A stretch of DNA of 64,000 nt, taken from NCBI GenBank assembly GCA_965221125.1, contig CBDCRW010000004.1:928001-992000 (forward strand), given 5' to 3'. This document shows positions 1 to 53,434 of the stretch, piece after piece. The notes beneath the pieces are model-generated. The model saw nothing but the letters and a program-made list of their open reading frames with translations, was not told the DNA's origin and searched no databases. The translations under genes were made by a program, and so were the position numbers. Each line of letters opens with the position of its first letter. Position 1 is the first letter of the stretch. This stretch comes from Alphaproteobacteria bacterium (GTDB lineage Bacteria > Pseudomonadota > Alphaproteobacteria > UBA828).

Positions 1-1204
1 AGAAGACCACCGCGACGCTGACCGCGCCAAGCAGCCATAGCCCCGCGTCGAACCCGCCCGTGAGGTCCGACGCCGCGCCGATCGCGAGCGGCCCCAGTAC
101 GCCGCCGATTTCCGCCGCCGAGAAGAAGAGCCCGACCGCTGCCCCGGTGTTGCGGGGATCGACGCCGCGCGATTCCATCAGCACCAGGATCAGCACGGCG
201 ATCAGCGAGCCCCGGCCGATGCCTTGCAGGATCATCGCCACCACCAGCGCCGGCGTGCCGGCCACCAGCAGCATCAGCGCGCCCGCGCCGCCGCAGAGCG
301 TCAGTCCGAACAGGATCGCAAAGCGCCGGGACGGAGTCGCATGGCGCGGGATCAGCAGCGCGCCGACGATGCCGATGGCGGTGGGCACCGCCGACCAGAT
401 GCCGGCGACATCCGGCGCCATGCCGCCCGTGCGCAGGATCTCCGGCAGCCAGTTGCTGAGCGCGTGATGGAAGAAGAAGGCGCCGATGCCGATGGCGAGG
501 ATGACCTGGATGTTCGGCAGGCGCAGCAGCGTGGCGAAGACCGCCATCTGGCCCGCGATGGTCTCGCGGTGGCGCCCGGCGCTCTCCACCACGCGGTTGA
601 TGGGGTGGCTCCCCAGCAGGAACCAGGCGAGGCCGGTGGCGAGGATGAAGCCCGCGTAGATCAGCAGCACATGGCGCCAGTTCCCGCCCGTGAGCGGCAT
701 CAGGACGCTGTTGGTCAGCATCAGCGCCAGCATGTTGCCGAGCGCGGGGCCGGTGATGTAGACGCCCATGGCGAAGCCGCGCTCCGCGCCCTGGAACCAC
801 TGCGCGATCGCCTTCGGCGCACCGATGGAGATGAGCGGACCGCCGATGCCGAAGAGCCCGACGGCCACGAACAGCGTCGCCCCGTCGAAGGCCACGGCGC
901 GCAAGCCCCCCGACGCGCCGATGACGAGCACCGCGAGGAACAGCGACCACTTCAGGCCCACGCGGTCGACGAAGGCGCCGCAGGGCGCGGCGGCGACGAT
1001 GTAGACCAGCGGCCAGGCGCCCAGGATGGCGCCCATGGTGGTGTAGCTGAGGCCGAGGTCGCGGCTGATGGGGTCGACCAGCGGCGCCATCGCCACCGAG
1101 AGCAGGCCGAAGCCGAAGTAGATCAGCCACACGCCCCCCAGCATGGCCCAGCGGTAGCCATGCTCGTGCGGCGGCACGCCGGGCGACGGGTCGGCGGGCC
1201 GCAC
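1..1204 (-). CDS. MFS transporter (CynX/NimT-like), runs off the left edge
   Basis: Manual minus-strand translation: YRWAMLGGVWLIYFGFGLLSVAMAPLVDPISRDLGLSYTTMGAILGAWPLVY...GAFVDRVGLK (MFS motif A-like), many TM segments. GTG start at 1204 is tentative. Confidence 0.8.
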   Translation of the reverse strand, partial: MRPADPSPGVPPHEHGYRWAMLGGVWLIYFGFGLLSVAMAPLVDPISRDLGLSYTTMGAILGAWPLVYIVAAAPCGAFVDRVGLKWSLFLAVLVIGASGGLRAVAFDGATLFVAVGLFGIGGPLISIGAPKAIAQWFQGAERGFAMGVYITGPALGNMLALMLTNSVLMPLTGGNWRHVLLIYAGFILATGLAWFLLGSHPINRVVESAGRHRETIAGQMAVFATLLRLPNIQVILAIGIGAFFFHHALSNWLPEILRTGGMAPDVAGIWSAVPTAIGIVGALLIPRHATPSRRFAILFGLTLCGGAGALMLLVAGTPALVVAMILQGIGRGSLIAVLILVLMESRGVDPRNTGAAVGLFFSAAEIGGVLGPLAIGAASDLTGGFDAGLWLLGAVSVAVVF

Positions 1205-39419: not shown

Positions 39420-41584
39420 ATGCTCGACGCCCACCCGGCGCCGGATGCCCCCGCGCGTCCGCCCGCCCCCGTCCCCGCCATTGCCGAAGCCGCCGAACCG
39501 CAGCCCCCCTCCGCGCCTGCCGCGCTGCTGACCGCGGCCCGCACCATACTCCCGGTCCTGGAGACCGGTTGGGCGCTGGATGCCCGCACGATGCGCGAGG
39601 CGATGACCTCCGCTTTCGGCGCCTCCGACACGGACGGCGCCTGGATCTGGAAGGATTCCTACGAGGCGGCCGAGGCGGCGCTGGTGCTCTTCCTCCAGCG
39701 CTACGGCCGCGCCATGCGGCGCGAGGCCGGTGCAGGTCCGGCCGGACCCACCGCCATGCTGCGCATGCTGGAGATCCTGGCGGCCCTGGAGCCCTCGCAG
39801 ACCAGGCGCTCAGAGGAGCAGCTCAGGTATCAGCAGTTCTCGACGCCGCTGCCCCTGGCCTACGCGGCGCTGCAGGCCGCCATGATCCGGCCCGGCGACG
39901 TCGTGCTCGAACCCTCGGCCGGCACCGGCATGCTGGCCGTCATGGCGCAGCTTGCGCTCGGCAACGGAGCCGCCGGCGCGCTTCACCTCAACGAGATCAC
40001 CGCCACGCGCGCGGGCCTTCTCGCGGGCCTCTTCCCCGGCTGCACCGTCACCCGCCACAACGCCGAGTCCATCAGGGACCGGCTGCCCGAGCTGCGGCCC
40101 ACCGTGGTGCTGATGAACCCGCCCTTCTCGGCCAGCCCCGGCGTGGACCGCATTCGCCATCACGTCGATCTGCATCACATCCGCTCGGCCGTCTCGATGC
40201 TGCCGCCGGGCGGGCGGCTGGTGGCAATTTCTTCCTCGCACTGCGTCCCCGGCGATACCGCGTGGGCGGATGCCTTCGCATCGCTCGACCCGCCGGCCCA
40301 TGCGGTGTTCACCGCCCCCATCCACGGCCGCGCCTACGCACGGCGCGGCACCACCTTCGACACCCGCCTCACCGTCCTCGATCGGGGAGGCGAGAAGCCC
40401 GCGCGGGTCTATGCCGGCCACCCCGTGCGCGACGCCGGCCACCTGTTGCAGGCGGTCACCGGCACCGTGCCGGCGCGGCGCCCCATCGAGCCGGTGCCGG
40501 GCGCGGATCTATTCGGTCAGGCGCCGGCGCCGTCGAGACGGCCCCGGCCCACGCGAGCGAAACGGACCCGGACCGCCCCGGAAGAGGCGCGGCCCCACGA
40601 CTGGGGGGTTGTGTCCGAACTTGCCTACCAGGCGGTGCCGGCCGGCGCCGGTTCCGCCGGGGCCGCGCAGCCCTCCGGTCCCTACGCACGATGGCAAGCA
40701 TCCGGCATCCACGTGCCGGGCGCGGTCGAGCACCCGACGCCGCTGGTGCAGTCCGGCGCCATGGCGGCGGTGGCGCATCCCATGCCGTCCTACCGCCCCA
40801 TGCTGCCCGAGAAAGTGGTGGCCGAGGGGCTGCTGTCCGACGCCCAGCTCGAGAGCGCGGTCCTCGCCGGCCAGGCGCACGAGTGCCATCTCGCCGCCGA
40901 GTACCGCATCGGTGCCGGCTGGGAGACGGTGCAGCGCGTCGACGTCGACGCCGACGGCGACAGCGATGAATCCGCTTCCGCCTCCGAAGACGACGGCAAG
41001 ACCGTCGACCCCGACGAGCCGCTGTCCGAACCGGTCCGCTTTCGGCGCGGCTGGATGCTGGGCGACGGCACCGGATGCGGCAAGGGCAGGCAGGTCGCCG
41101 CCATCGTCCTCGACCAGTGGCTCCGAGGCCGGAAGCGGGCGCTCTGGCTCTCCCAGTCCGACAAGCTGCTGGAGGACGCGCGCCGGGACTGGTGCGCCGT
41201 CGGCGGGCGCGCCGAAGACGTCATCCCCCTCGGCAAGGTCCGCCAGGGGGCCGACATCCCGCATGCCCAAGGCATCCTGTTCGCCACCTATGCCACGCTG
41301 CGCTCCCCCGCCCGGCAGGGCAAGCCCTCGCGCCTCGACCAGATCGTGGCCTGGCTCGCGGACGGCGACGGCGAGCAAAAGCGCCACGCATACCAGGGCG
41401 TCATCGTCTTCGACGAAGCGCACGCGATGGCCAACGCGGCGGGGTCGAAGGGCTCGCGCGGCGAGGTGAAGCCCTCGCAGCAGGGACGTGCGGGCCTGCG
41501 GCTGCAGAACGCGCTGCCCGATGCCCGTATCCTCTACGTCTCCGCCACCGGGGCCACCACCGTCCCCGGCCTCGCCTACGCGCG
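39420..41584 (+). pseudogene. strawberry-notch family methylase/helicase, 5' part (interrupted)
   Basis: QQFSTP, VLEPSAGTG, MNPPFS (amino-MTase); LSDAQLE, GDGTGCGKGR, FDEAH, YVSATG (SF2-like). Interrupted at GLAYA/R. Confidence 0.9.
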
Positions 41585-41599
41585 AGAGTACGCTTCATA

Positions 41600-43675
41600 C
41601 TACACCTCATCTATTCCTGTGGGGGCAAGGTTGCAGCTCGGTTTGCGCAGAGACAGCTTTCGCCCCGGTTGTTTGGTCGGCGGAGGGTCGGGAATCTCGT
41701 ACAAGTAGTCGGATCCGCCGGTGTAGGCGTGTCCGCGCAAGAGCCCGGCCTTGCGCCATTGGTTGACTGTGCCGACGGAGACCGCGAGGCGCTCGGCGGC
41801 CTCGTTGACCGTCAACAGCCCGCGATCGCGCAGCCGTTCATAGCGTGGCTTGAGAGCGTAGTTCGCTCGCAGCACCCCCACCAACTTCGGGGTAAAGGCG
41901 TGGCCGTAACCGCTTCGGTATCCGCGCTCGTTGAGGATTTTGGCGATCTCGCCATAGTTGTGGTCGTTCAACAGGCTGTCGACCTCGGCGACGATCTCGG
42001 CCTTGGTCTTGAAGGTCTCACATCCGAGAGGATCCGGCGCCCAGGTGAGCTGGCGGGTCGCGCCGCCGCGCAGACGCACCCCCAGGCTCCGCGTGGCCCT
42101 GGTCAGCGTCACGTCCTCGATCAGCAGCCGCGCCATCCGCTTGCGCTCGCGGTGCGGCGTCGCAGGATCGTTCCACAGGCGGGGGAAGTCGCTGGCCAGC
42201 GCGAGGATTCGCTTGCGTTGCCCTTCGTCCAACCCCTGGCCCGGATCCGCGCGGCTGCGCTCGAGCTCTCGCTGCGCCTCGTCCAGCGTCCGAAGCTTCG
42301 CGTTCCACTCCGCCTCCAGCACGTCGGCTACTATCCGGTTGTCGGGATGGGTCTGCATGAACCTCTGCCGCGCCAGGTCCGCTTCCTCGCGGGCGCGCTG
42401 CACTCGCTGAGCGCGCCACAGATCGGCCTCCTCGGCGCGCGCGGTGAGTTCGTCCTGCACCTGCAACGCCACCTCCAGCGTCAACGGCGTCATCAGCTCC
42501 ACCAGCAACTCGCCGACCGCGCGGTCGATGGCAGCGCCGGGGATGCTCTGACACCAGGCGCTCGCCGTCTGCGCACCTTCATGGCTGCACAGGTAGTAGG
42601 GGTGCAGCTCCTTTGATTTTTGCTTGTAGTAGCGCACCCCCATGCTCCGGCCGCACACGCCGCAGACAGCCAGTCCCTGCAGCAGTGCCGGCCCCTCGCG
42701 TGGGGGAGGGCGGCGCTCCGCGCCGCGCGCTCGGGCAGCATTGTTGTCGCGAAGCTGGCTCTCGTTCTGTTCGAACCGCTCCCAGGTGATGTAGCCCGGG
42801 TGCGCATCGCGCAGCTCCACCATCCATTCCTCACGTGGCAGACGTTGGGTCTCGACACCGCCGCCGGGACGCCGCCGGCTGCGGCTGCGCCCGTACGCGT
42901 AAGCGCCGGCGTATCGCGGATTGCGCAGCACTCGCAGTGCCCGCGCGAACCTCAGCGGCTTCCAATGCAGCTCGCCCTTGTGCGGCCCGTGGAGAGGACG
43001 GTAGGGGAAAAGCAGGTTCTCGGCCCTGAAATACTTGACCGTGGCATTAGCCGAGCCGAGCCGGGTGAAGGTATCGAAGAACAGGCGCAGGCTATGCTGC
43101 ACTTGTTCGTCGGGGTCGAGCACCACGTTGCCGAGCGGGTCATAGACCAGTCCCACCGGCAGCGGCAACTTCAACTCCCCACGCTTGGCCGCGTTCAGCG
43201 TCCCACCGCGCAGCCGGGCGCGCATCATGTGCAGCTCCGCTTCCGACATGGTCCCTTTGAGCCCGAGCAGGAGCCTGTCGTTGAAGTCTCCTGGATTGTA
43301 GAGGCCGTCCTCGTCGAGGATCAGCGTCTCGCTCAGGTCACAGATCTCGACCAGCCGATGCCACTCGGTGGAATTGCGCGCGAGCCTTGACACCTCGAGC
43401 CCGAGCACGATCCCGGCCCGGCCCAAGCTGACGTCGGCGACCAGACGCTGGAAGCCTTCGCGGTCCTTGTCGGCGCCGGACAGGCCCTGATCGCAATCGA
43501 TCACGACGACGTTCTCGGTCGGCCAGCCCAGGGCCACGGCCCGCTCGCGCAGCGCGTACTGGCGGCGCGTGCTCTCGCCATGTTCGAACACCTGGCGCAC
43601 GGTGGACTGACGCACGTACAGGTAAGCATCGCGGCTCAGGTGGTTCGCGCTCACCTTCTGATAGGCAGTGCTCAT
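41600..43675 (-). CDS. large serine recombinase (resolvase + recombinase + Zn ribbon + HTH)
   Basis: AYLYVRQST, D-x-GLSG, EVSRLARN, GTMSEAEL, LLQGLAVCGVCG, terminal HTH. Confidence 0.95.
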   Translation of the reverse strand: MSTAYQKVSANHLSRDAYLYVRQSTVRQVFEHGESTRRQYALRERAVALGWPTENVVVIDCDQGLSGADKDREGFQRLVADVSLGRAGIVLGLEVSRLARNSTEWHRLVEICDLSETLILDEDGLYNPGDFNDRLLLGLKGTMSEAELHMMRARLRGGTLNAAKRGELKLPLPVGLVYDPLGNVVLDPDEQVQHSLRLFFDTFTRLGSANATVKYFRAENLLFPYRPLHGPHKGELHWKPLRFARALRVLRNPRYAGAYAYGRSRSRRRPGGGVETQRLPREEWMVELRDAHPGYITWERFEQNESQLRDNNAARARGAERRPPPREGPALLQGLAVCGVCGRSMGVRYYKQKSKELHPYYLCSHEGAQTASAWCQSIPGAAIDRAVGELLVELMTPLTLEVALQVQDELTARAEEADLWRAQRVQRAREEADLARQRFMQTHPDNRIVADVLEAEWNAKLRTLDEAQRELERSRADPGQGLDEGQRKRILALASDFPRLWNDPATPHRERKRMARLLIEDVTLTRATRSLGVRLRGGATRQLTWAPDPLGCETFKTKAEIVAEVDSLLNDHNYGEIAKILNERGYRSGYGHAFTPKLVGVLRANYALKPRYERLRDRGLLTVNEAAERLAVSVGTVNQWRKAGLLRGHAYTGGSDYLYEIPDPPPTKQPGRKLSLRKPSCNLAPTGIDEV

Positions 43676-43974
43676 GCCAACTCTCCTTCCATATGGCCCT
43701 TGAGCATCGCGAGAAGAATGTCGATCAGCGACTTCTCGACCCCGCCGGGCAGCGGCTCGGTCGAGGCGCCGGCGCAAACGGCGGCCGGCGGGGCGGGCAA
43801 CTCGGCCACGGCGTGCAGCCAGGCCGCGACGCCGCGCAACGCCACCACGGCAAGCCCGTGACGGTTGTGCTCTGTGCCGGGCTCGACCGCATGACGGCGC
43901 AGCCGCTCGTAGCCGTCCCCATAGGCGGAATGTTCCAGCGGGAGCAGCCCGGCGAGCGGCGGCCGGCACTTCAT
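43672..43974 (-). CDS. hypothetical protein of the LSR element
   Basis: YERLR...GLAVVALRGVAAW; ATGA-coupled on both sides. Confidence 0.7.
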   Translation of the reverse strand: MKCRPPLAGLLPLEHSAYGDGYERLRRHAVEPGTEHNRHGLAVVALRGVAAWLHAVAELPAPPAAVCAGASTEPLPGGVEKSLIDILLAMLKGHMEGELA

Positions 43975-44432
43975 CGGCTTTTTTTTACCTGCGCGAGCAT
44001 GCGGCCGATGCTGCGGCGATGGATGGTGATGCCAAAGCGCGCGCGCACCAGATCGACCAGCGCGGCGGCGGTCAACTCCGGCTGTTCGCTCTTCGCCGCG
44101 AGCAGCGCCTCGACCACCTCGTCGCTGAGCTTGTGGCGTCGGCGGGGTCCCGGCTTCTCCGGCAGCAGGCCCGGCAGCCCGCCCGCATCGTAGGCGCGCT
44201 GCGCCTGGTACCAGGTGGGCCGCGAGACGCCGAAGCTGGCCGCGGCGTGGCTCACCGGCACGCCGTCCTCGCGCACACGGCGCAGCATCTCGTACCTGAC
44301 CTGGACCAGGTCGCGCGGGTCGAAGAACGCGTTGGACAGGAACAGCTCGTCGCGCACCGTCTCCGCGTTCGGGTTGAGGCAGCCGTGCTCCTTGAGGGAG
44401 CGGGTCTTGGCGTCGGCGGGGCGTCTGGCCAT
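43971..44432 (-). CDS. HTH domain protein of the LSR element
   Basis: FFDPRDLVQVRYEMLR...AAASFGVSRPTWYQ...GLPGLLPEKPGPR...IHRRSIGR. Confidence 0.85.
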   Translation of the reverse strand: MARRPADAKTRSLKEHGCLNPNAETVRDELFLSNAFFDPRDLVQVRYEMLRRVREDGVPVSHAAASFGVSRPTWYQAQRAYDAGGLPGLLPEKPGPRRRHKLSDEVVEALLAAKSEQPELTAAALVDLVRARFGITIHRRSIGRMLAQVKKSR

Positions 44433-44614
44433 TGCGTGGGCTCCGGCGGCGGAGGAATGTAAGTATATTTATGCACACCCCTGGCATCGCATCAAACCCT
44501 TTCTTGCCCCATATCGACGAAAACAGGCCGAAATACCGTGTATATTGGTCGATCATGACCGCCCTTCCAGTCCATACGACAACCTCCGACCGCCAGGTAT
44601 GGACAAAAACGCTC

Positions 44615-44923
44615 TTACACATGCGGCAAAATCTCCTTGACACCGCTCGCGCCGCCGGCCGCCTCCTTTCCAACCCTCTCGCCGCCGCCCAAGCCATCCA
44701 GCAACGCCGACAACGTCAGCAGATCCGAGACACGGAACGCCGACCGGCCCGCCGCTACCCGCGCAAACGGATCCACCGCTGCAACGCTGGTAAAAGCCTG
44801 ACGAATCGTGCGCAGCGTCCCGTCGTCAGCCGTGTAATGGACCAGCCCCACCCCAAGCATCGACGTGGTCTCGATCAGTTCGAACTCACGTCCGAGAAGA
44901 GGATGAAACGGGTGCGTCACCAC
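44615..44923 (-). CDS. DUF5372-like protein (5' end apparently supplied by the other element end)
   Basis: VTHPFHPL-x-G...DPF...GRSAFRVSDL; frame stays open to the element end at 44975. Confidence 0.75.
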   Translation of the reverse strand: MVTHPFHPLLGREFELIETTSMLGVGLVHYTADDGTLRTIRQAFTSVAAVDPFARVAAGRSAFRVSDLLTLSALLDGLGGGERVGKEAAGGASGVKEILPHV

Positions 44924-44975
44924 AAAGCGTTGCTGCTCAACGCATGAACGACGTGCAGTTGAAAGCCTGGTGCCG

Positions 44976-50254: not shown

Positions 50255-51505
50255 ATGTTCGAAGAACTCTTCTCAGTTCCTCACGTCATCGAGAGATACC
50301 GCGTAGCAGCACTTGTCGAAGACCGGCTGCGATATCTCCAGCATCTAAAGGACACAGGTTCCGGTCGAAGAACCTTGAGGGACAACGCAATCAACCAACT
50401 CAGCTTGGTGCGCCTTCTCGATTTGAAAGATGGCGATAGAGTAAGTGTCCGCGAAGTCGAGCTCGCGGCAGCGAAGTGGTCGCAACCGGGAGGGCGTAGA
50501 TGGAAACGGGCCGCTTCATCCAAGAGCAAGTCAAGGTTTACGCATCACGCGCTCCAATGGTTACGTTTTCTTGGCGCGCTCGACGAACCCGATAACGTGC
50601 GTCATCCCTATGGTGACGAGGTTGCGGTATATCAGCAGTGGATGCGCGAAGAGCGCGGATTGTCCGAACAGACAATCCGCACCCAACTATTCAACGTCAA
50701 GATCTTCTTCGATTGGTTGGCGGTCAGTGAAACACCACTAGCTTCTGTTAAGGTGACCGATATCGACTCTGCCATTGCGGCGAGGCATGCTCAGGGAACC
50801 TGCAATCGAAGGACGATACACGACTACGCCCGACATCTAAAAAGCTTCATTCGTTTCGCCGAGGACCGTAGCTGGTGCAGGCCAGGAATGGCCAAGGGCA
50901 TAAGGCCACTAAGGATGTATCCCGACGAGACAGTGCCGAAAGGGATTAGTCGAACAAATGTCCTGCGCTTGCTGGAGACCACCGAAGGTAACCGGCCAGT
51001 TGACAAGCGCGACCGCGCTATTCTGATGCTGTTGATCGCCTACGGGTTGCGGGCTGGTGAAGTTAGTGCCCTACGCCTCGATGACCTTGACTGGGAAAAG
51101 GAGACCTTGACGGTCCGGCGTTCGAAGTCGGGGCGAACAAATCTCTATCCCCTTTCCCGAGGCGTCGGACAAGCGACCCTCCGCTACATCCTCGAGGTCC
51201 GTCCCAAGCGTCCTGAACGCACCCTCTTCTTCACCCTTGTAGCCCCTATTCGACCGGTCACCCCGGGGGCGTTGTGGGAAATCGTCAGCAAACGTTTAGG
51301 GAGCCTGGGTATTGTAACTGGACCCCGGGGACCGCACGCTCTGCGGCATGCGGCGGCCCAGCATCTTCTTGACCAAGGCATGTCGATGAAGGTGATTGGA
51401 GATTTTCTGGGACACCGTGACCCTGACTCCACCGCAACCTACGCCAAAGTGAATCTTTCCGCCCTTCGGGAAGTGGCTGACTTCGACTTGGAGGGCCTGG
51501 CATGA
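50255..51505 (+). CDS. RIT tyrosine recombinase A
   Basis: YGLRAGE, SKSG, HALRH, LGH, TATYAKV. Confidence 0.9.
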   Translation: MFEELFSVPHVIERYRVAALVEDRLRYLQHLKDTGSGRRTLRDNAINQLSLVRLLDLKDGDRVSVREVELAAAKWSQPGGRRWKRAASSKSKSRFTHHALQWLRFLGALDEPDNVRHPYGDEVAVYQQWMREERGLSEQTIRTQLFNVKIFFDWLAVSETPLASVKVTDIDSAIAARHAQGTCNRRTIHDYARHLKSFIRFAEDRSWCRPGMAKGIRPLRMYPDETVPKGISRTNVLRLLETTEGNRPVDKRDRAILMLLIAYGLRAGEVSALRLDDLDWEKETLTVRRSKSGRTNLYPLSRGVGQATLRYILEVRPKRPERTLFFTLVAPIRPVTPGALWEIVSKRLGSLGIVTGPRGPHALRHAAAQHLLDQGMSMKVIGDFLGHRDPDSTATYAKVNLSALREVADFDLEGLA

Positions 51506-52446
51506 AACTTCGGGACGCAATCTCTCAGTACATCGAATGGCGACGAGTCCACGGCGCCAAGTTCGAAACCGGTGCCATCACCCTCAACCTGTTTCTAAGG
51601 AGCGTCAATGCGGACATTGACTGTGACGCTGTCACGCGGGCGCAGATCTGCGCATTCCTTGCGGGCGATGGCCGACTTACCCGAAATCGGGAGAACAAGT
51701 ACGGCGCGCTAAATGGATTTTATCAGTTTGCGACTAGCCGCGGATACGCAAGTTCTTCGCCGCTGCCGGACAACGAACCGAGACCTCCAAAGTCAGCACG
51801 GTCTTACATCTTCTCTCGCGATGAGATTCGGCGCATGTTCGACGCTATAGAGTTTAGCCGGCGACATGCGCTGCAGTTAGATGCGGATACCTTCCGCACT
51901 CTGCTTCTGCTTCTTTACGGAACCGGTCTAAGGGGCCAGGAGGCCCGGAAGCTCACGGTGGCGGACGTTGACTTGTCGGCTGCAGTGCTCACCGTGCGTA
52001 ACACTAAGTTCTTCAAGAACCGCTTAGTACCAGTCGGACCGCAACTCAACGGTGCGTTGAAAACATATGCGGTGAAGCGTGCAACTCGATCGTTCCCGCA
52101 GGGGAGAGATTCCGCCTTTCTGGCAAATCGGGACGGAACGCCGCTGCATAAAGATACGATACAGTGCGCCTTTGCCGGGCTGCTTCGCACAGCAGGGATA
52201 CAGGGAACGGACGGTACATGCCGACCTCCGTGCCTTCATGCCTTCAGGCACACCTTCGCCGTACACAGGCTGACAGAGTGGTATCGGAAGGGCGCGGATG
52301 TGCAGCGGCTGTTGCCGTATCTCTCCACTTATCTCGGCCATTCAGAGCTGGCCTACACCCAAGTCTATCTTCCAATGACGCCGGAGCTTCTGCATGAAGC
52401 GGCGCTCCGCTTGGAACGCTATCTGCGGGGAGGGAACGATGAATAA
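51502..52446 (+). CDS. RIT tyrosine recombinase B
   Basis: GTGLR, TKFFKNR, HAFRHTFAV, LSTYLGH, TQVYL. Confidence 0.9.
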   Translation: MKLRDAISQYIEWRRVHGAKFETGAITLNLFLRSVNADIDCDAVTRAQICAFLAGDGRLTRNRENKYGALNGFYQFATSRGYASSSPLPDNEPRPPKSARSYIFSRDEIRRMFDAIEFSRRHALQLDADTFRTLLLLLYGTGLRGQEARKLTVADVDLSAAVLTVRNTKFFKNRLVPVGPQLNGALKTYAVKRATRSFPQGRDSAFLANRDGTPLHKDTIQCAFAGLLRTAGIQGTDGTCRPPCLHAFRHTFAVHRLTEWYRKGADVQRLLPYLSTYLGHSELAYTQVYLPMTPELLHEAALRLERYLRGGNDE

Positions 52447-53434
52447 CAATCAAGTGCTGGGACCTTGGGTCCAACGCTTCTTCCAAGAATACCTTGTAAC
52501 TGAGCGCAATGTAGCTCAAACCACCTGGGAGAACTACCTCTGGACTTTCAAACTGTTTGTGCCGTTTCTCTGCACGACGCTCAAGAAGGCCGACTACAAG
52601 CTAGCTGTTCACGACATCACGTCAGAACTCCTTCTGAAATTCCTCGCTCACGTTGAGCAAGGTCGGAGCTGTTCTGTGCAGACTCGAAACCAACGGTTGA
52701 CAGCCATCCGAGGCTTTGCCCGCTTCGTCGGCGGCCGAGATCCTACACATGTCGGATGGTGCGGTCGAATTTGCAGCGTTCCTTTCAAGAAGGCGATACA
52801 ACAGCCGATAGTCGCGCTCAGCAAGGTTGATGCGGATGCCATGCTTGATGTTCCGGACCGGTCAACGGAGCGAGGCCGTATCGAATACGCCGTTCTTCAC
52901 CTTCTTCGACATGTCGGGGCACGCGTCTCCGAAGCCACTCAACTACGAGTGGGTGATGTGCAAGTCGGGCGCCGCGACGGGCGCCATGCTCTTGTGACGC
53001 TGCACGGAAAGGGCGGCAAGATACGTCAATGCCCGTTGGTGCCGGAAACCGAGCGCGCGTTGACGCCACTGGTCCAAGGTCGCGAGACAAGCAAGGCTGT
53101 CTTCCTCAGCAGGTATGGAAGGCCGTACACTCGGTTCGGAATCTATCGACTTGTCGAGCGTTGTGCCAGCCAAGTTCCTGCCTTGGTCGATAGGAAAGTA
53201 ACTCCTCACGTCTTGAGACACACCGCAGCCTGCGAAATGGTGCGTGCGAGAGTGGACCTCAACACGATTCGGGCAGTGCTGGGGCATGCCAGTCTCGACA
53301 CGACAAACGTCTATGCGGAGATCGATCTCGAACTCAAGGCGCAGGCGCTCGCACTATGCGATGCCGCCGAGCCGGGGCCGGACCGACCGTGGAAGGAGAA
53401 AAAGGGCCTGATGGCCTTTCTGAACTCGTTGTAG
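52439..53434 (+). CDS. RIT tyrosine recombinase C
   Basis: TRNQRL, GARVSE, GKGGK, TPHVLRH, LGHASLDTTNVYAE. Confidence 0.9.
   Translation: MNNNQVLGPWVQRFFQEYLVTERNVAQTTWENYLWTFKLFVPFLCTTLKKADYKLAVHDITSELLLKFLAHVEQGRSCSVQTRNQRLTAIRGFARFVGGRDPTHVGWCGRICSVPFKKAIQQPIVALSKVDADAMLDVPDRSTERGRIEYAVLHLLRHVGARVSEATQLRVGDVQVGRRDGRHALVTLHGKGGKIRQCPLVPETERALTPLVQGRETSKAVFLSRYGRPYTRFGIYRLVERCASQVPALVDRKVTPHVLRHTAACEMVRARVDLNTIRAVLGHASLDTTNVYAEIDLELKAQALALCDAAEPGPDRPWKEKKGLMAFLNSL

Follow-up and report, generated by a model that had tools for sequence, protein, structure and literature searches.

How does a gene work that lies at the very end of a mobile element and lacks a start of its own? This question is raised by an element in a 64,000-nucleotide stretch of an Alphaproteobacteria bacterium (contig CBDCRW010000004.1, positions 928,001 to 992,000; this whole stretch is called the window). 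Positions 41583-44975 of the window form an element of 3.39 kb resembling an insertion sequence (IS), with a large serine recombinase (LSR) gene near one end and a gene of the DUF5372 family at the other. The DUF5372 frame is open to the edge of the element, and a ribosome-binding site and an ATG that would fit it stand at the opposite edge. The explanation that we favor, with a probability of about 65%, is that DUF5372 is completed on the excised circle, is translated there in coupling with the LSR, binds the hinge of the LSR and favors insertion. The mobility of the element, its boundaries, its gene order, the missing start of DUF5372, the conserved start signals and the frame that they share with the gene body are observations, made on the window and its relatives.

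The boundaries were defined by comparing copies. The 3393-bp stretch, with both CG dinucleotides at its ends counted, is present in three identical copies (100%) at unrelated sites of the genome. Apart from a CG at each junction, these flanks have no sequence in common. An empty site was provided by a paralogue of the interrupted gene on contig C2, which is uninterrupted and continuous across the insertion site. Contigs from four public runs end at 41582/41583 and at 44975, where additional flanks are visible, and empty-site joints were seen in paralogues within the contigs of these runs. The CG at both junctions of the three copies, together with an empty site that reads through, is the pattern of conservative exchange at a 2-bp core, with no duplication of the target. 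The element has a recombinase of its own and defined ends, recurs identically at unrelated places and has an empty counterpart site; it is therefore an autonomous IS-like unit of 3391 bp plus a 2-bp crossover, moved conservatively by the LSR. No meaningful internal repeats were found in it. Its two arms form an imperfect inverted repeat, in which the half-sites (41592-41608 on the minus strand and 44950-44966) each lie 7 bp inside their CG and are identical at 12/17 positions, and the half-site core GTG[CT]A[GA]T of the recombinase-side arm was found again in relatives. The original prediction had proposed both these half-sites and a crossover at the two CGs; the half-sites held when re-read from the sequence, and the crossover was borne out by the copies and the empty site. 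The features at the two ends are as follows.

41583-41584, no strand: crossover dinucleotide CG at the recombinase-side junction (the three copies share only CG; public contigs break at 41582/41583).
41585-41608, minus strand: recombinase-side arm, a 7-bp spacer and a 17-bp half-site that holds the start signals (12/17 against the other arm).
41596-41598, minus strand: ATG starting the putative junction-spanning DUF5372 open reading frame (ORF), 14 nt from the crossover in 35/35 distinct elements.
41605-41608, minus strand: Shine-Dalgarno (SD)-like GAGG, 6 nt before the ATG (an SD-like run is also present in relatives).
44615-44974, minus strand: DUF5372 gene body of 119 codons, counted from the crossover G, and then a stop (PF17342, E 6.5e-21).
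44950-44973, plus strand: DUF5372-side arm, a 17-bp half-site and a 7-bp spacer, coding for residues 6-13 of the junction ORF (from the half-site comparison).
44974-44975, no strand: crossover dinucleotide CG at the DUF5372-side junction (copy comparison, empty site and public contig breaks).

On the minus strand, the LSR stop codon TAG (41600-41602) is followed one base later by the ATG, then by four codons and then by the CG at 41583-84. Relatives with genomic context were taken from 7 species-genome loci, multi-copy genomes of the same genus, metagenome contigs (the best 80 of 141) and 61 plasmid records. Both ends were present in 49 loci, which gave 35 distinct elements. The recombinase end was located by motif search, since scoring for the best inverted repeat failed on a repeat that is too imperfect. 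All 35 elements carried an ATG 14 nt from the crossover with an SD-like run ahead of it (GGAGG, GGAAGGAG, GCAAGGAG or GAGG); the run was present in 32/32 elements by computed evaluation, and the remaining three were judged by reading their sequences. At the mirror place on the DUF5372 arm, an ATG was found in 0/66 sequences and an SD-like run in 24/66. The place of the ATG relative to the recombinase stop varied among the 35 elements. It overlapped the stop as ATGA in 9, lay 10-11 nt inside the recombinase gene in 4 and 1-8 nt behind the stop in another 4, and was 20-49 nt behind it, outside the recombinase coding sequence, in 16; the other 2 had no long ORF nearby. Runs of the GGAAGGAG type are retained in the non-coding DNA of those 16 elements. 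In NGR234 and a Streptomyces plasmid, a GTG stands at the canonical place, immediately followed by the ATG, in frame. The recurrence of these signals in distant relatives makes the pattern far beyond chance.

The crossover itself could be checked in 32 elements by comparing the dinucleotide 14 bases after the A of the ATG with that found 13 nt before the arm motif of the DUF5372 end. The two were equal in 30/32 (TT 19, CG 5, TG 3, AC 1, CT 1 and AG 1), and places shifted by 1-4 nt, used as a control, agreed in at most 7/32. Because the dinucleotides match at a fixed geometry, they fix the boundaries of the relatives: the crossover varies and the geometry is constant. One element that the filter had dropped (L047) also matches, with TG, when its sequence is read. 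The subfamily of L062, L063, L159 and L160 has a recombinase-side end that could not be fixed, and it was left out of all counts.

The frame of DUF5372 in the window is open from 44974 to the stop at 44615-44617, and its first in-frame ATG, GTG or TTG is the GTG at 44923. To survey this region in relatives, the motif T-H-P-F/Y-H-P was used, which occurs 115 times in the loci. In 100 of these loci the arm motif AACTGCAC or a close variant stood at its fixed place, 13 nt from the crossover, and these reduced to the 66 distinct sequences on which the counts for this arm are based. The remaining 15 were set aside: arm-length variants, three copies that have a deletion of 1 nt, contigs cut short, the members of the L062 group and a single aberrant arm. 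Over the 19 codons that lie within the element ahead of the T-H-P-F-H-P motif, 0/66 arms had a stop in the DUF5372 frame, vs 41/66 and 52/66 in the two alternative frames. A start codon in frame (ATG, GTG or TTG) was missing from 34/66 arms, and none of the 66 had an in-frame ATG. The pN/pS values (ratios of nonsynonymous to synonymous variation), pooled over related pairs and therefore descriptive, were 0.56 in codons 13-24 in the DUF5372 frame vs 1.20 and 1.81 in the other frames, and 0.34 vs 1.25 and 1.73 in the DUF5372 domain. Arm lengths other than 59 nt were 62 nt (NGR234 and Aromatoleum) and 68 nt (Caballeronia and a Streptomyces plasmid), all of them in-frame changes. The deletion copies L096, L098 and L103 are one element from three metagenome records, in which the loss of 1 nt in the N-terminal extension leads to a stop in the DUF5372 frame; this element is probably a decaying copy.

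These data bear on the simplest alternative, that DUF5372 is an ordinary gene which starts at the local GTG as a 102-aa protein, is made while the element is integrated, and has in the distant SD-ATG pair merely a recombinase binding site. The GTG at 44923 directly precedes the Pfam model, which begins one residue past it, and the ATG at the other end does lie within the inverted-repeat half-site. However, the codon equivalent to the window GTG is GTG in 31 of the 66 arms and otherwise GTC (18), GTA (5), GTT (4), ATC (5) or ATA (3), and this variation marks it as an ordinary Val/Ile codon. An SD-like run ahead of it was found in only 9/66 arms, and the frame upstream of it is open in 66/66, with the low pN/pS of codons 13-24 given above. 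The element leaves no room for a promoter upstream of the GTG, and the SD-ATG pair belongs to one arm only. In NGR234, the start annotated by RefSeq for DUF5372 is a GTG that is absent from a diverged sister copy, 78% identical. We therefore consider an ordinary gene with a local start unlikely.

Gene callers have not agreed on where DUF5372 proteins begin. Among the best 150 of 2069 representative proteins, 122 carried the motif, and their called starts were scattered from 1 to 127 residues ahead of it with no common place: 1 residue in 20 proteins, 3-18 in 34, 19-24 in 13 and 25 or more in 55. The RefSeq start on the Caballeronia plasmid lies behind the motif. Two of the called proteins on long contigs (P0022 and P0027) have the same first six residues, which fall in the expected flank at unequal distances from the element end.

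When the two ends were joined in silico, the frame was open across the junction in 34/34 elements, the arm variants of +3 and +9 nt included, and the joined ORFs were 109-125 aa long (median 124). In the window, joining at the CG places five codons ahead of the 119 in-element codons to give 124. The GAGG and ATG at the recombinase end, the frame open up to the CG and the 124-aa ORF made by joining had all been described in the original prediction and were confirmed. Its expectations for homologues, a frame kept across the junction and no conserved internal start, agree with the counts from relatives, and this comparison supports the proposal that integration separates the start of the gene from its body.

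The gene order of the element on the minus strand is DUF5372, a 182-nt gap with a conserved promoter, a helix-turn-helix (HTH) gene, a 100-aa ORF and the LSR gene.

44467-44495, minus strand: sigma-70-like promoter, TTGATG, 17 nt and ATAAAT preceded by TG (conserved block in 11 aligned elements).
43971-44432, minus strand: HTH protein, 153 aa (HTH_32, HTH_23 and HTH_28).
43672-43974, minus strand: small ORF, 100 aa, with ATGA overlaps with both neighbors (from the ORF listing).
41600-43675, minus strand: LSR, 691 aa (Resolvase, Recombinase, Zn_ribbon_recom and a C-terminal HTH_17).

The LSR matches PF00239 (E 2.6e-20), PF07508 (E 1.1e-14) and PF13408 (E 1.5e-9), all above the cut-offs. Its catalytic domain covers residues 17-167 and is followed by the recombinase and zinc ribbon domains, which is the architecture of an LSR; the best partial match in NCBIfam was XisF, below its cut-off. 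The HTH protein resembles the N-terminal DNA-binding part of IS630/IS481 transposases in partial matches that stay below the model cut-offs. The small ORF had no family match in Pfam, NCBIfam or PHROGs, and its ATGA overlap with the recombinase start is present in 26/29 elements. Compared with its counterpart in NGR234 (L146:5918-6181), its position and ATGA overlaps are kept and sequence likeness is undetectable (E 5.4).

The promoter block, which lies in the 182-nt gap ahead of the HTH gene and reads TTGAT(G), 17 nt and ATAAAT after a TG, is directed toward the HTH gene, the small ORF and the recombinase. Its conserved position and direction place DUF5372 upstream of the sole conserved promoter, with less than 60 nt of element DNA ahead of DUF5372. 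A strict consensus scan listed no promoter, the conserved block included, and terminator-like hairpins appeared at chance level only. By the rule of the same scan, a pair of hexamers spanning the in-silico junction was found in 0/34 elements, which argues that a junction promoter (Pjunc) is not the case here. Behind the DUF5372 stop, the region folds no better than shuffled sequences (z 0.71) and no terminator-like fold stands out; a search of Rfam gave no credible match. A TTTTTG run directly behind this stop (window 44600-44617) is conserved in the 11 aligned elements.

This arrangement suggests how the gene could be switched. In the integrated element, the internal promoter would drive a translationally coupled operon of the HTH gene, the small ORF and the LSR, whose transcript would leave the element at the LSR end, and DUF5372 would sit upstream of the promoter without a ribosome-binding site or a start codon. 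Upon excision, the LSR would join both ends at the shared dinucleotide. The SD run, the ATG and four codons near or over the LSR stop would then be fused in frame to the body of DUF5372, and the operon transcript would continue into it as the last gene, coupled to the LSR. We infer that in cells DUF5372 is expressed in this way from the circle only. The full 124-aa protein would be made only in the excised state or in a head-to-tail tandem, and insertion would split the gene again and reset the switch.

It could also be imagined that the flanking DNA supplies the start, with DUF5372 translated from outside, either fused to a host gene at the landing site or through read-through from one. A frame that is open to the very end in 66/66 arms would allow this. 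Gene callers often extend DUF5372 into the flanks, and the frame of copy 3 continues for 949 codons into the flank, antisense to a relaxase gene. However, the site-specific subfamilies sit antisense to their targets, as do copies 1 and 3 of the window genome, and in copy 2 a stop interrupts the frame 4 codons ahead of the junction. A search for fused forms of DUF5372 found only 4 longer proteins and no recurrent fusion. Expression from outside would also leave the conserved SD-ATG at the other end unexplained, and we regard it as barely plausible.

DUF5372 of the window matches PF17342 with 74.6 bits (cut-off 25) over residues 19-95 of the 119-aa read. Its model has a mean predicted local distance difference test (pLDDT) score of 72, rising to 92-94 over residues 21-60, and shows a small beta-barrel followed by a helix. 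The barrel resembles KOW/SH3-type folds in a generic way: the best Z score was 5.0 (root-mean-square deviation 1.5, 44 residues, the KOW domain of Spt5), tied with SH3 and NdhS. A Foldseek search with the model gave no match at E <= 0.001, searches of NCBIfam and PHROGs gave none, and the best hit among PDB sequences had an E of 0.26, which is no match to any solved protein. In a protein atlas, DUF5372 clusters were the only ones found.

A complex of the recombinase (alignment of 12) and DUF5372 (alignment of 35) was then modeled and scored 0.72 (0.74, 0.71 and 0.72 in the separate runs), and the best of three controls scored 0.00. The mark used for this score is reached by 58/80 solved complexes and by 2/110 mismatched pairs. 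The partner pLDDT was at least 67, and at least 80% of the contacts were common to the runs. On DUF5372, the predicted interface comprises residues 21-26 and 68-96, which hold 10 of the 12 invariant columns, and the N-terminal extension lies outside it. On the LSR, it comprises residues 337-342 (the CxxC of the zinc ribbon), 394-413 and 482-518 (both ends of the coiled coil) and 523-542. The modeling thus supports a binding of DUF5372 to the LSR at the hinge of zinc ribbon and coiled coil. The Candidatus Chlorohelix allophototropha plasmid NZ_CP128402.1 (L152) carries a two-gene form that lacks both the HTH gene and the small ORF and consists of DUF5372 and, directly after it, the recombinase. 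AGGAGG and ATG are retained at its recombinase end, each predicted junction has TT, and this reduced form fits a direct partnership of DUF5372 and LSR.

The circle-made protein might instead be a DNA-binding regulator that acts mainly on the element promoter, as feedback on the HTH-LSR operon, and not on the recombinase. SH3/KOW-like barrels are frequently nucleic-acid binders, a median net charge of +2 makes the N-terminal extension mildly basic, and the block around the promoter is strongly conserved. In contrast, the invariant residues are predicted at the LSR contact, with controls at 0.00, and DUF5372 would be coupled in translation to the LSR. The two-gene form retains just these two genes, and a dedicated HTH protein is already encoded by the element. 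A role at the promoter therefore seems very unlikely to us.

The role that fits best is that of a directionality factor made by the circle, which DUF5372 probably is. The original prediction had proposed a circle-specific directionality, integration or targeting factor, and the hinge model lends this indirect support. The closest comparison is the large serine integrase of phages with its recombination directionality factor (RDF), as in phiC31 Int and gp3. This integrase and the LSR of the window share the Resolvase and Recombinase domains, a zinc ribbon with an inserted coiled coil, and the 2-bp crossover. According to PMC5814800, gp3 binds the phage integrase in its zinc-ribbon/coiled-coil region, and the site predicted for DUF5372 matches that region. 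Unlike the phage systems, the element is a 3.4-kb IS-like unit in multiple copies, in which the gene of the partner is cut by the attachment site. The effect of DUF5372 may also have the reverse sign of that of a classical RDF. By binding the hinge, DUF5372 would shift which pair of sites recombines, and it would most likely favor insertion of the circle and block immediate re-excision. We favor this sign by the logic that a factor hidden during integration and made after excision is useful to the element only in this way.

The opposite sign was considered as well. Here the split gene is real and DUF5372 is a classical RDF that promotes excision and blocks insertion, so that a rare first excision would set off the excision of further copies in trans and would prevent the circle from re-entering the site that it vacated. 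The predicted binding site is the RDF site on phage integrases, as described in PMC5814800 and placed by our complex model, and genomes frequently carry more than one copy, with 3 copies in the genome of the window and up to 8 matches in others of the genus. However, a circle that inhibits its own insertion would be lost, since no replication function is evident, and the protein would be hidden exactly when excision must begin. We judge this reading to be rather unlikely. Should the insertion-promoting sign apply generally, DUF5372 would represent a new and widespread class of directionality factor with reversed logic, translated from the circle, licensing insertion and locking the new copy before insertion switches it off, as a self-resetting two-state switch held in DNA topology. 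This wider claim is put forward tentatively, as a possibility that we find doubtful at present.

Several observations weigh against a DUF5372 that is completed on the circle and acts on the LSR. The recombinase half-site contains the ATG and some of the SD run, and their conservation may in part reflect a constraint from DNA binding. In most elements, site geometry sets the frame between the ATG and the arm motif, which makes the joined frame a non-independent test, and the counts come from related sequences, which overstates their independence. The boundaries of metagenome contigs rest on geometry and matching dinucleotides rather than on empty sites, and two of the 32 elements, L009 and L070, have dinucleotides that do not match. 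Codons 6-12, which overlap the recombinase site, have a pN/pS of 0.90 vs 1.32 and 0.54 in the other frames and thus no coding signature, and local initiation may occur in the 31/66 arms, that of the window among them, that have a GTG just before the domain. A joined form, with the recombinase-end motif upstream of the DUF5372 motif, was not found among the collected loci. The one viral contig with a relative holds an integrated copy and no joined form, and a phage collection gave no match. No back-joint was among the joints listed for the contigs of the four public runs, in assemblies of a kind that drops rare forms. As for function, the SH3/KOW-like fold is generic at a Z of about 5 and gives no clue, the binding to the LSR is a model prediction, and a factor that appears after excision fits badly with a classical RDF, which promotes excision, so that the sign was chosen on logic.

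Two individual loci from these comparisons can be added. L009, in the metagenome-assembled genome OZ241969.1, carries CG at one end, TT at the other and one additional base at the border, and its sister copies L011 and L013 match with CT; it may be an immobilized copy or the product of a mismatched event. A contig of 3405 nt (L074) was considered as a circular permutation of the element and was rejected, since its flank is ordinary.

The same gene order, DUF5372 (Y4bD/Y4pK family), HTH, small ORF and recombinase, was found in y4bA-y4bD and y4pH-y4pK of S. fredii NGR234, where the recombinase (y4bA) is 53% identical to the LSR of the window. The NGR234 repeats comprise three copies bounded by TT, and their recombinase end holds a GTG-then-ATG start whose frame continues into the DUF5372 body. 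They differ from the element in an arm that is 3 nt longer, in the TT crossover and in their target, which is the antisense strand of a conserved motif of a DDE transposase. A literature search for DUF5372 or y4bD/y4pK/y4bA/y4pH found nothing relevant, and those on circles of serine-recombinase ISs and on split genes or start codons found no description of this arrangement; supplements were not covered in any of them.

Some known systems share single features with the element. Like IS607 and LSR transposons of the Tn4451/Tn5397 type, it would transpose by way of a circle and a serine recombinase with a 2-bp crossover, and target specificity is low in some of these. Unlike them, it has three accessory genes, the split DUF5372 among them, and many of its subfamilies are site-specific for genes of mobile elements. 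The LSR does not belong to the IS607 family, whose small transposases carry the DNA-binding domain ahead of the catalytic one, as it has 691 aa and an N-terminal catalytic domain followed by the recombinase and zinc ribbon domains. The IS3, IS30 and IS110 families have promoters formed at the circle junction, and a junction promoter is also known for TnpX of Tn4451. According to PMC13023037, ICEKp1 switches its int promoter between the integrated and excised states. These systems and the element would share the dependence of expression on abutted ends. In contrast to them, the promoter of the element is internal, and it is a translation start that would be joined to a coding body.

Genes split by an attachment site have precedents in two other settings. 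Passages of a review (PMC8371274) describe archaeal "suicidal" integrases of the SSV type, whose attachment site lies inside a gene of the element that is split on integration and whole only on the circle. The review, as far as these passages go, likens the splitting to directionality control and knows such enzymes only from archaea. In the SSV type, the split gene is the tyrosine recombinase itself; in the element, a serine recombinase of bacterial hosts stays whole, an accessory gene is split, and the split detaches only 5 codons and the ribosome-binding site. The LSR is not suicidal in this sense, as its ORF terminates within the element, 16 nt short of the crossover, and the recombinases of relatives end at or before the start-codon region. 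The second setting is that of skin, SPbeta, gin and the fdxN element, in which a serine recombinase rebuilds a split frame through precise excision at a short core (systems treated in PMC5025042 and PMC5595907). What these rebuild is a host gene on the chromosome, whereas here a gene of the element would also be rebuilt, on the excised circle, as a mirror image.

At E <= 0.001, the DUF5372 profile matches 2069 representatives of a library that was clustered at 50% identity. The family is rare in a sample of the phylum, where it occurred in 7/401 genomes, that of the window counted, and in the order PF17342 was found in 11/49 genomes, all 11 of the window's genus. Relatives on plasmids are annotated as DUF5372 or Y4bD/Y4pK, y4bD-y4bA of S. 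fredii NGR234 among them. The relatives as a whole form a broad recombinase-driven family of IS-like elements in sponge symbionts, rhizobia, Burkholderia and Streptomyces.

If our explanation is true, mobile DNA would have a simple and general way of detecting which state it is in, one that operates in translation rather than through a junction promoter. A gene-splitting attachment site would then exist in bacteria, where, by the passages of PMC8371274, none is known. A function and a partner would be assigned to a family of at least 2069 sequence clusters, and the scattered annotated starts of its members would be explained. Large serine recombinases are used in genome engineering, and DUF5372 would also be a candidate protein for controlling them.

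Many subfamilies insert site-specifically, always antisense and within conserved motifs of genes of other mobile elements; the motifs were named from reading translated flanks, not from a family search. The soil group L090-L144 targets the "KG.KER..PLW" box of tyrosine recombinases, and the plasmid groups L146-L157 and L147-L154 target the "GK(V/L)E" box of DDE (rve-type) transposases in NGR234, Bradyrhizobium, Aromatoleum, Caballeronia and Streptomyces. The "TEWHR" box of serine recombinases is the antisense target of L062, L063, L159 and L160. In the genome of the window, copy 2 lies 9 nt behind a SulP-STAS gene, and copy 3 (L003, G000:C4:1072841-1079233) interrupts a TrwC relaxase gene adjoined by a gene for a TrwB-type coupling protein. 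The copy in the window interrupts the following gene.

39420-41582, plus strand: 5' part of the interrupted target gene, a methylase / strawberry-notch-type helicase (AAA_34 positions 1-234 of 306; intact paralogue on contig C2).
44976-47331, plus strand: 3' part of the interrupted target gene (AAA_34 positions 236-305 and Helicase_C_4).

Further along in the window, three tandem tyrosine-recombinase genes, each with a Phage_integrase domain, lie at 50255-53434 and resemble a recombinase-in-trio element. Around this trio are a ParB-like gene, RadC, a macro-domain gene and a Toprim/DUF7146 gene, and these neighbors place the window copy in a region like that of an integrative and conjugative element or a plasmid.

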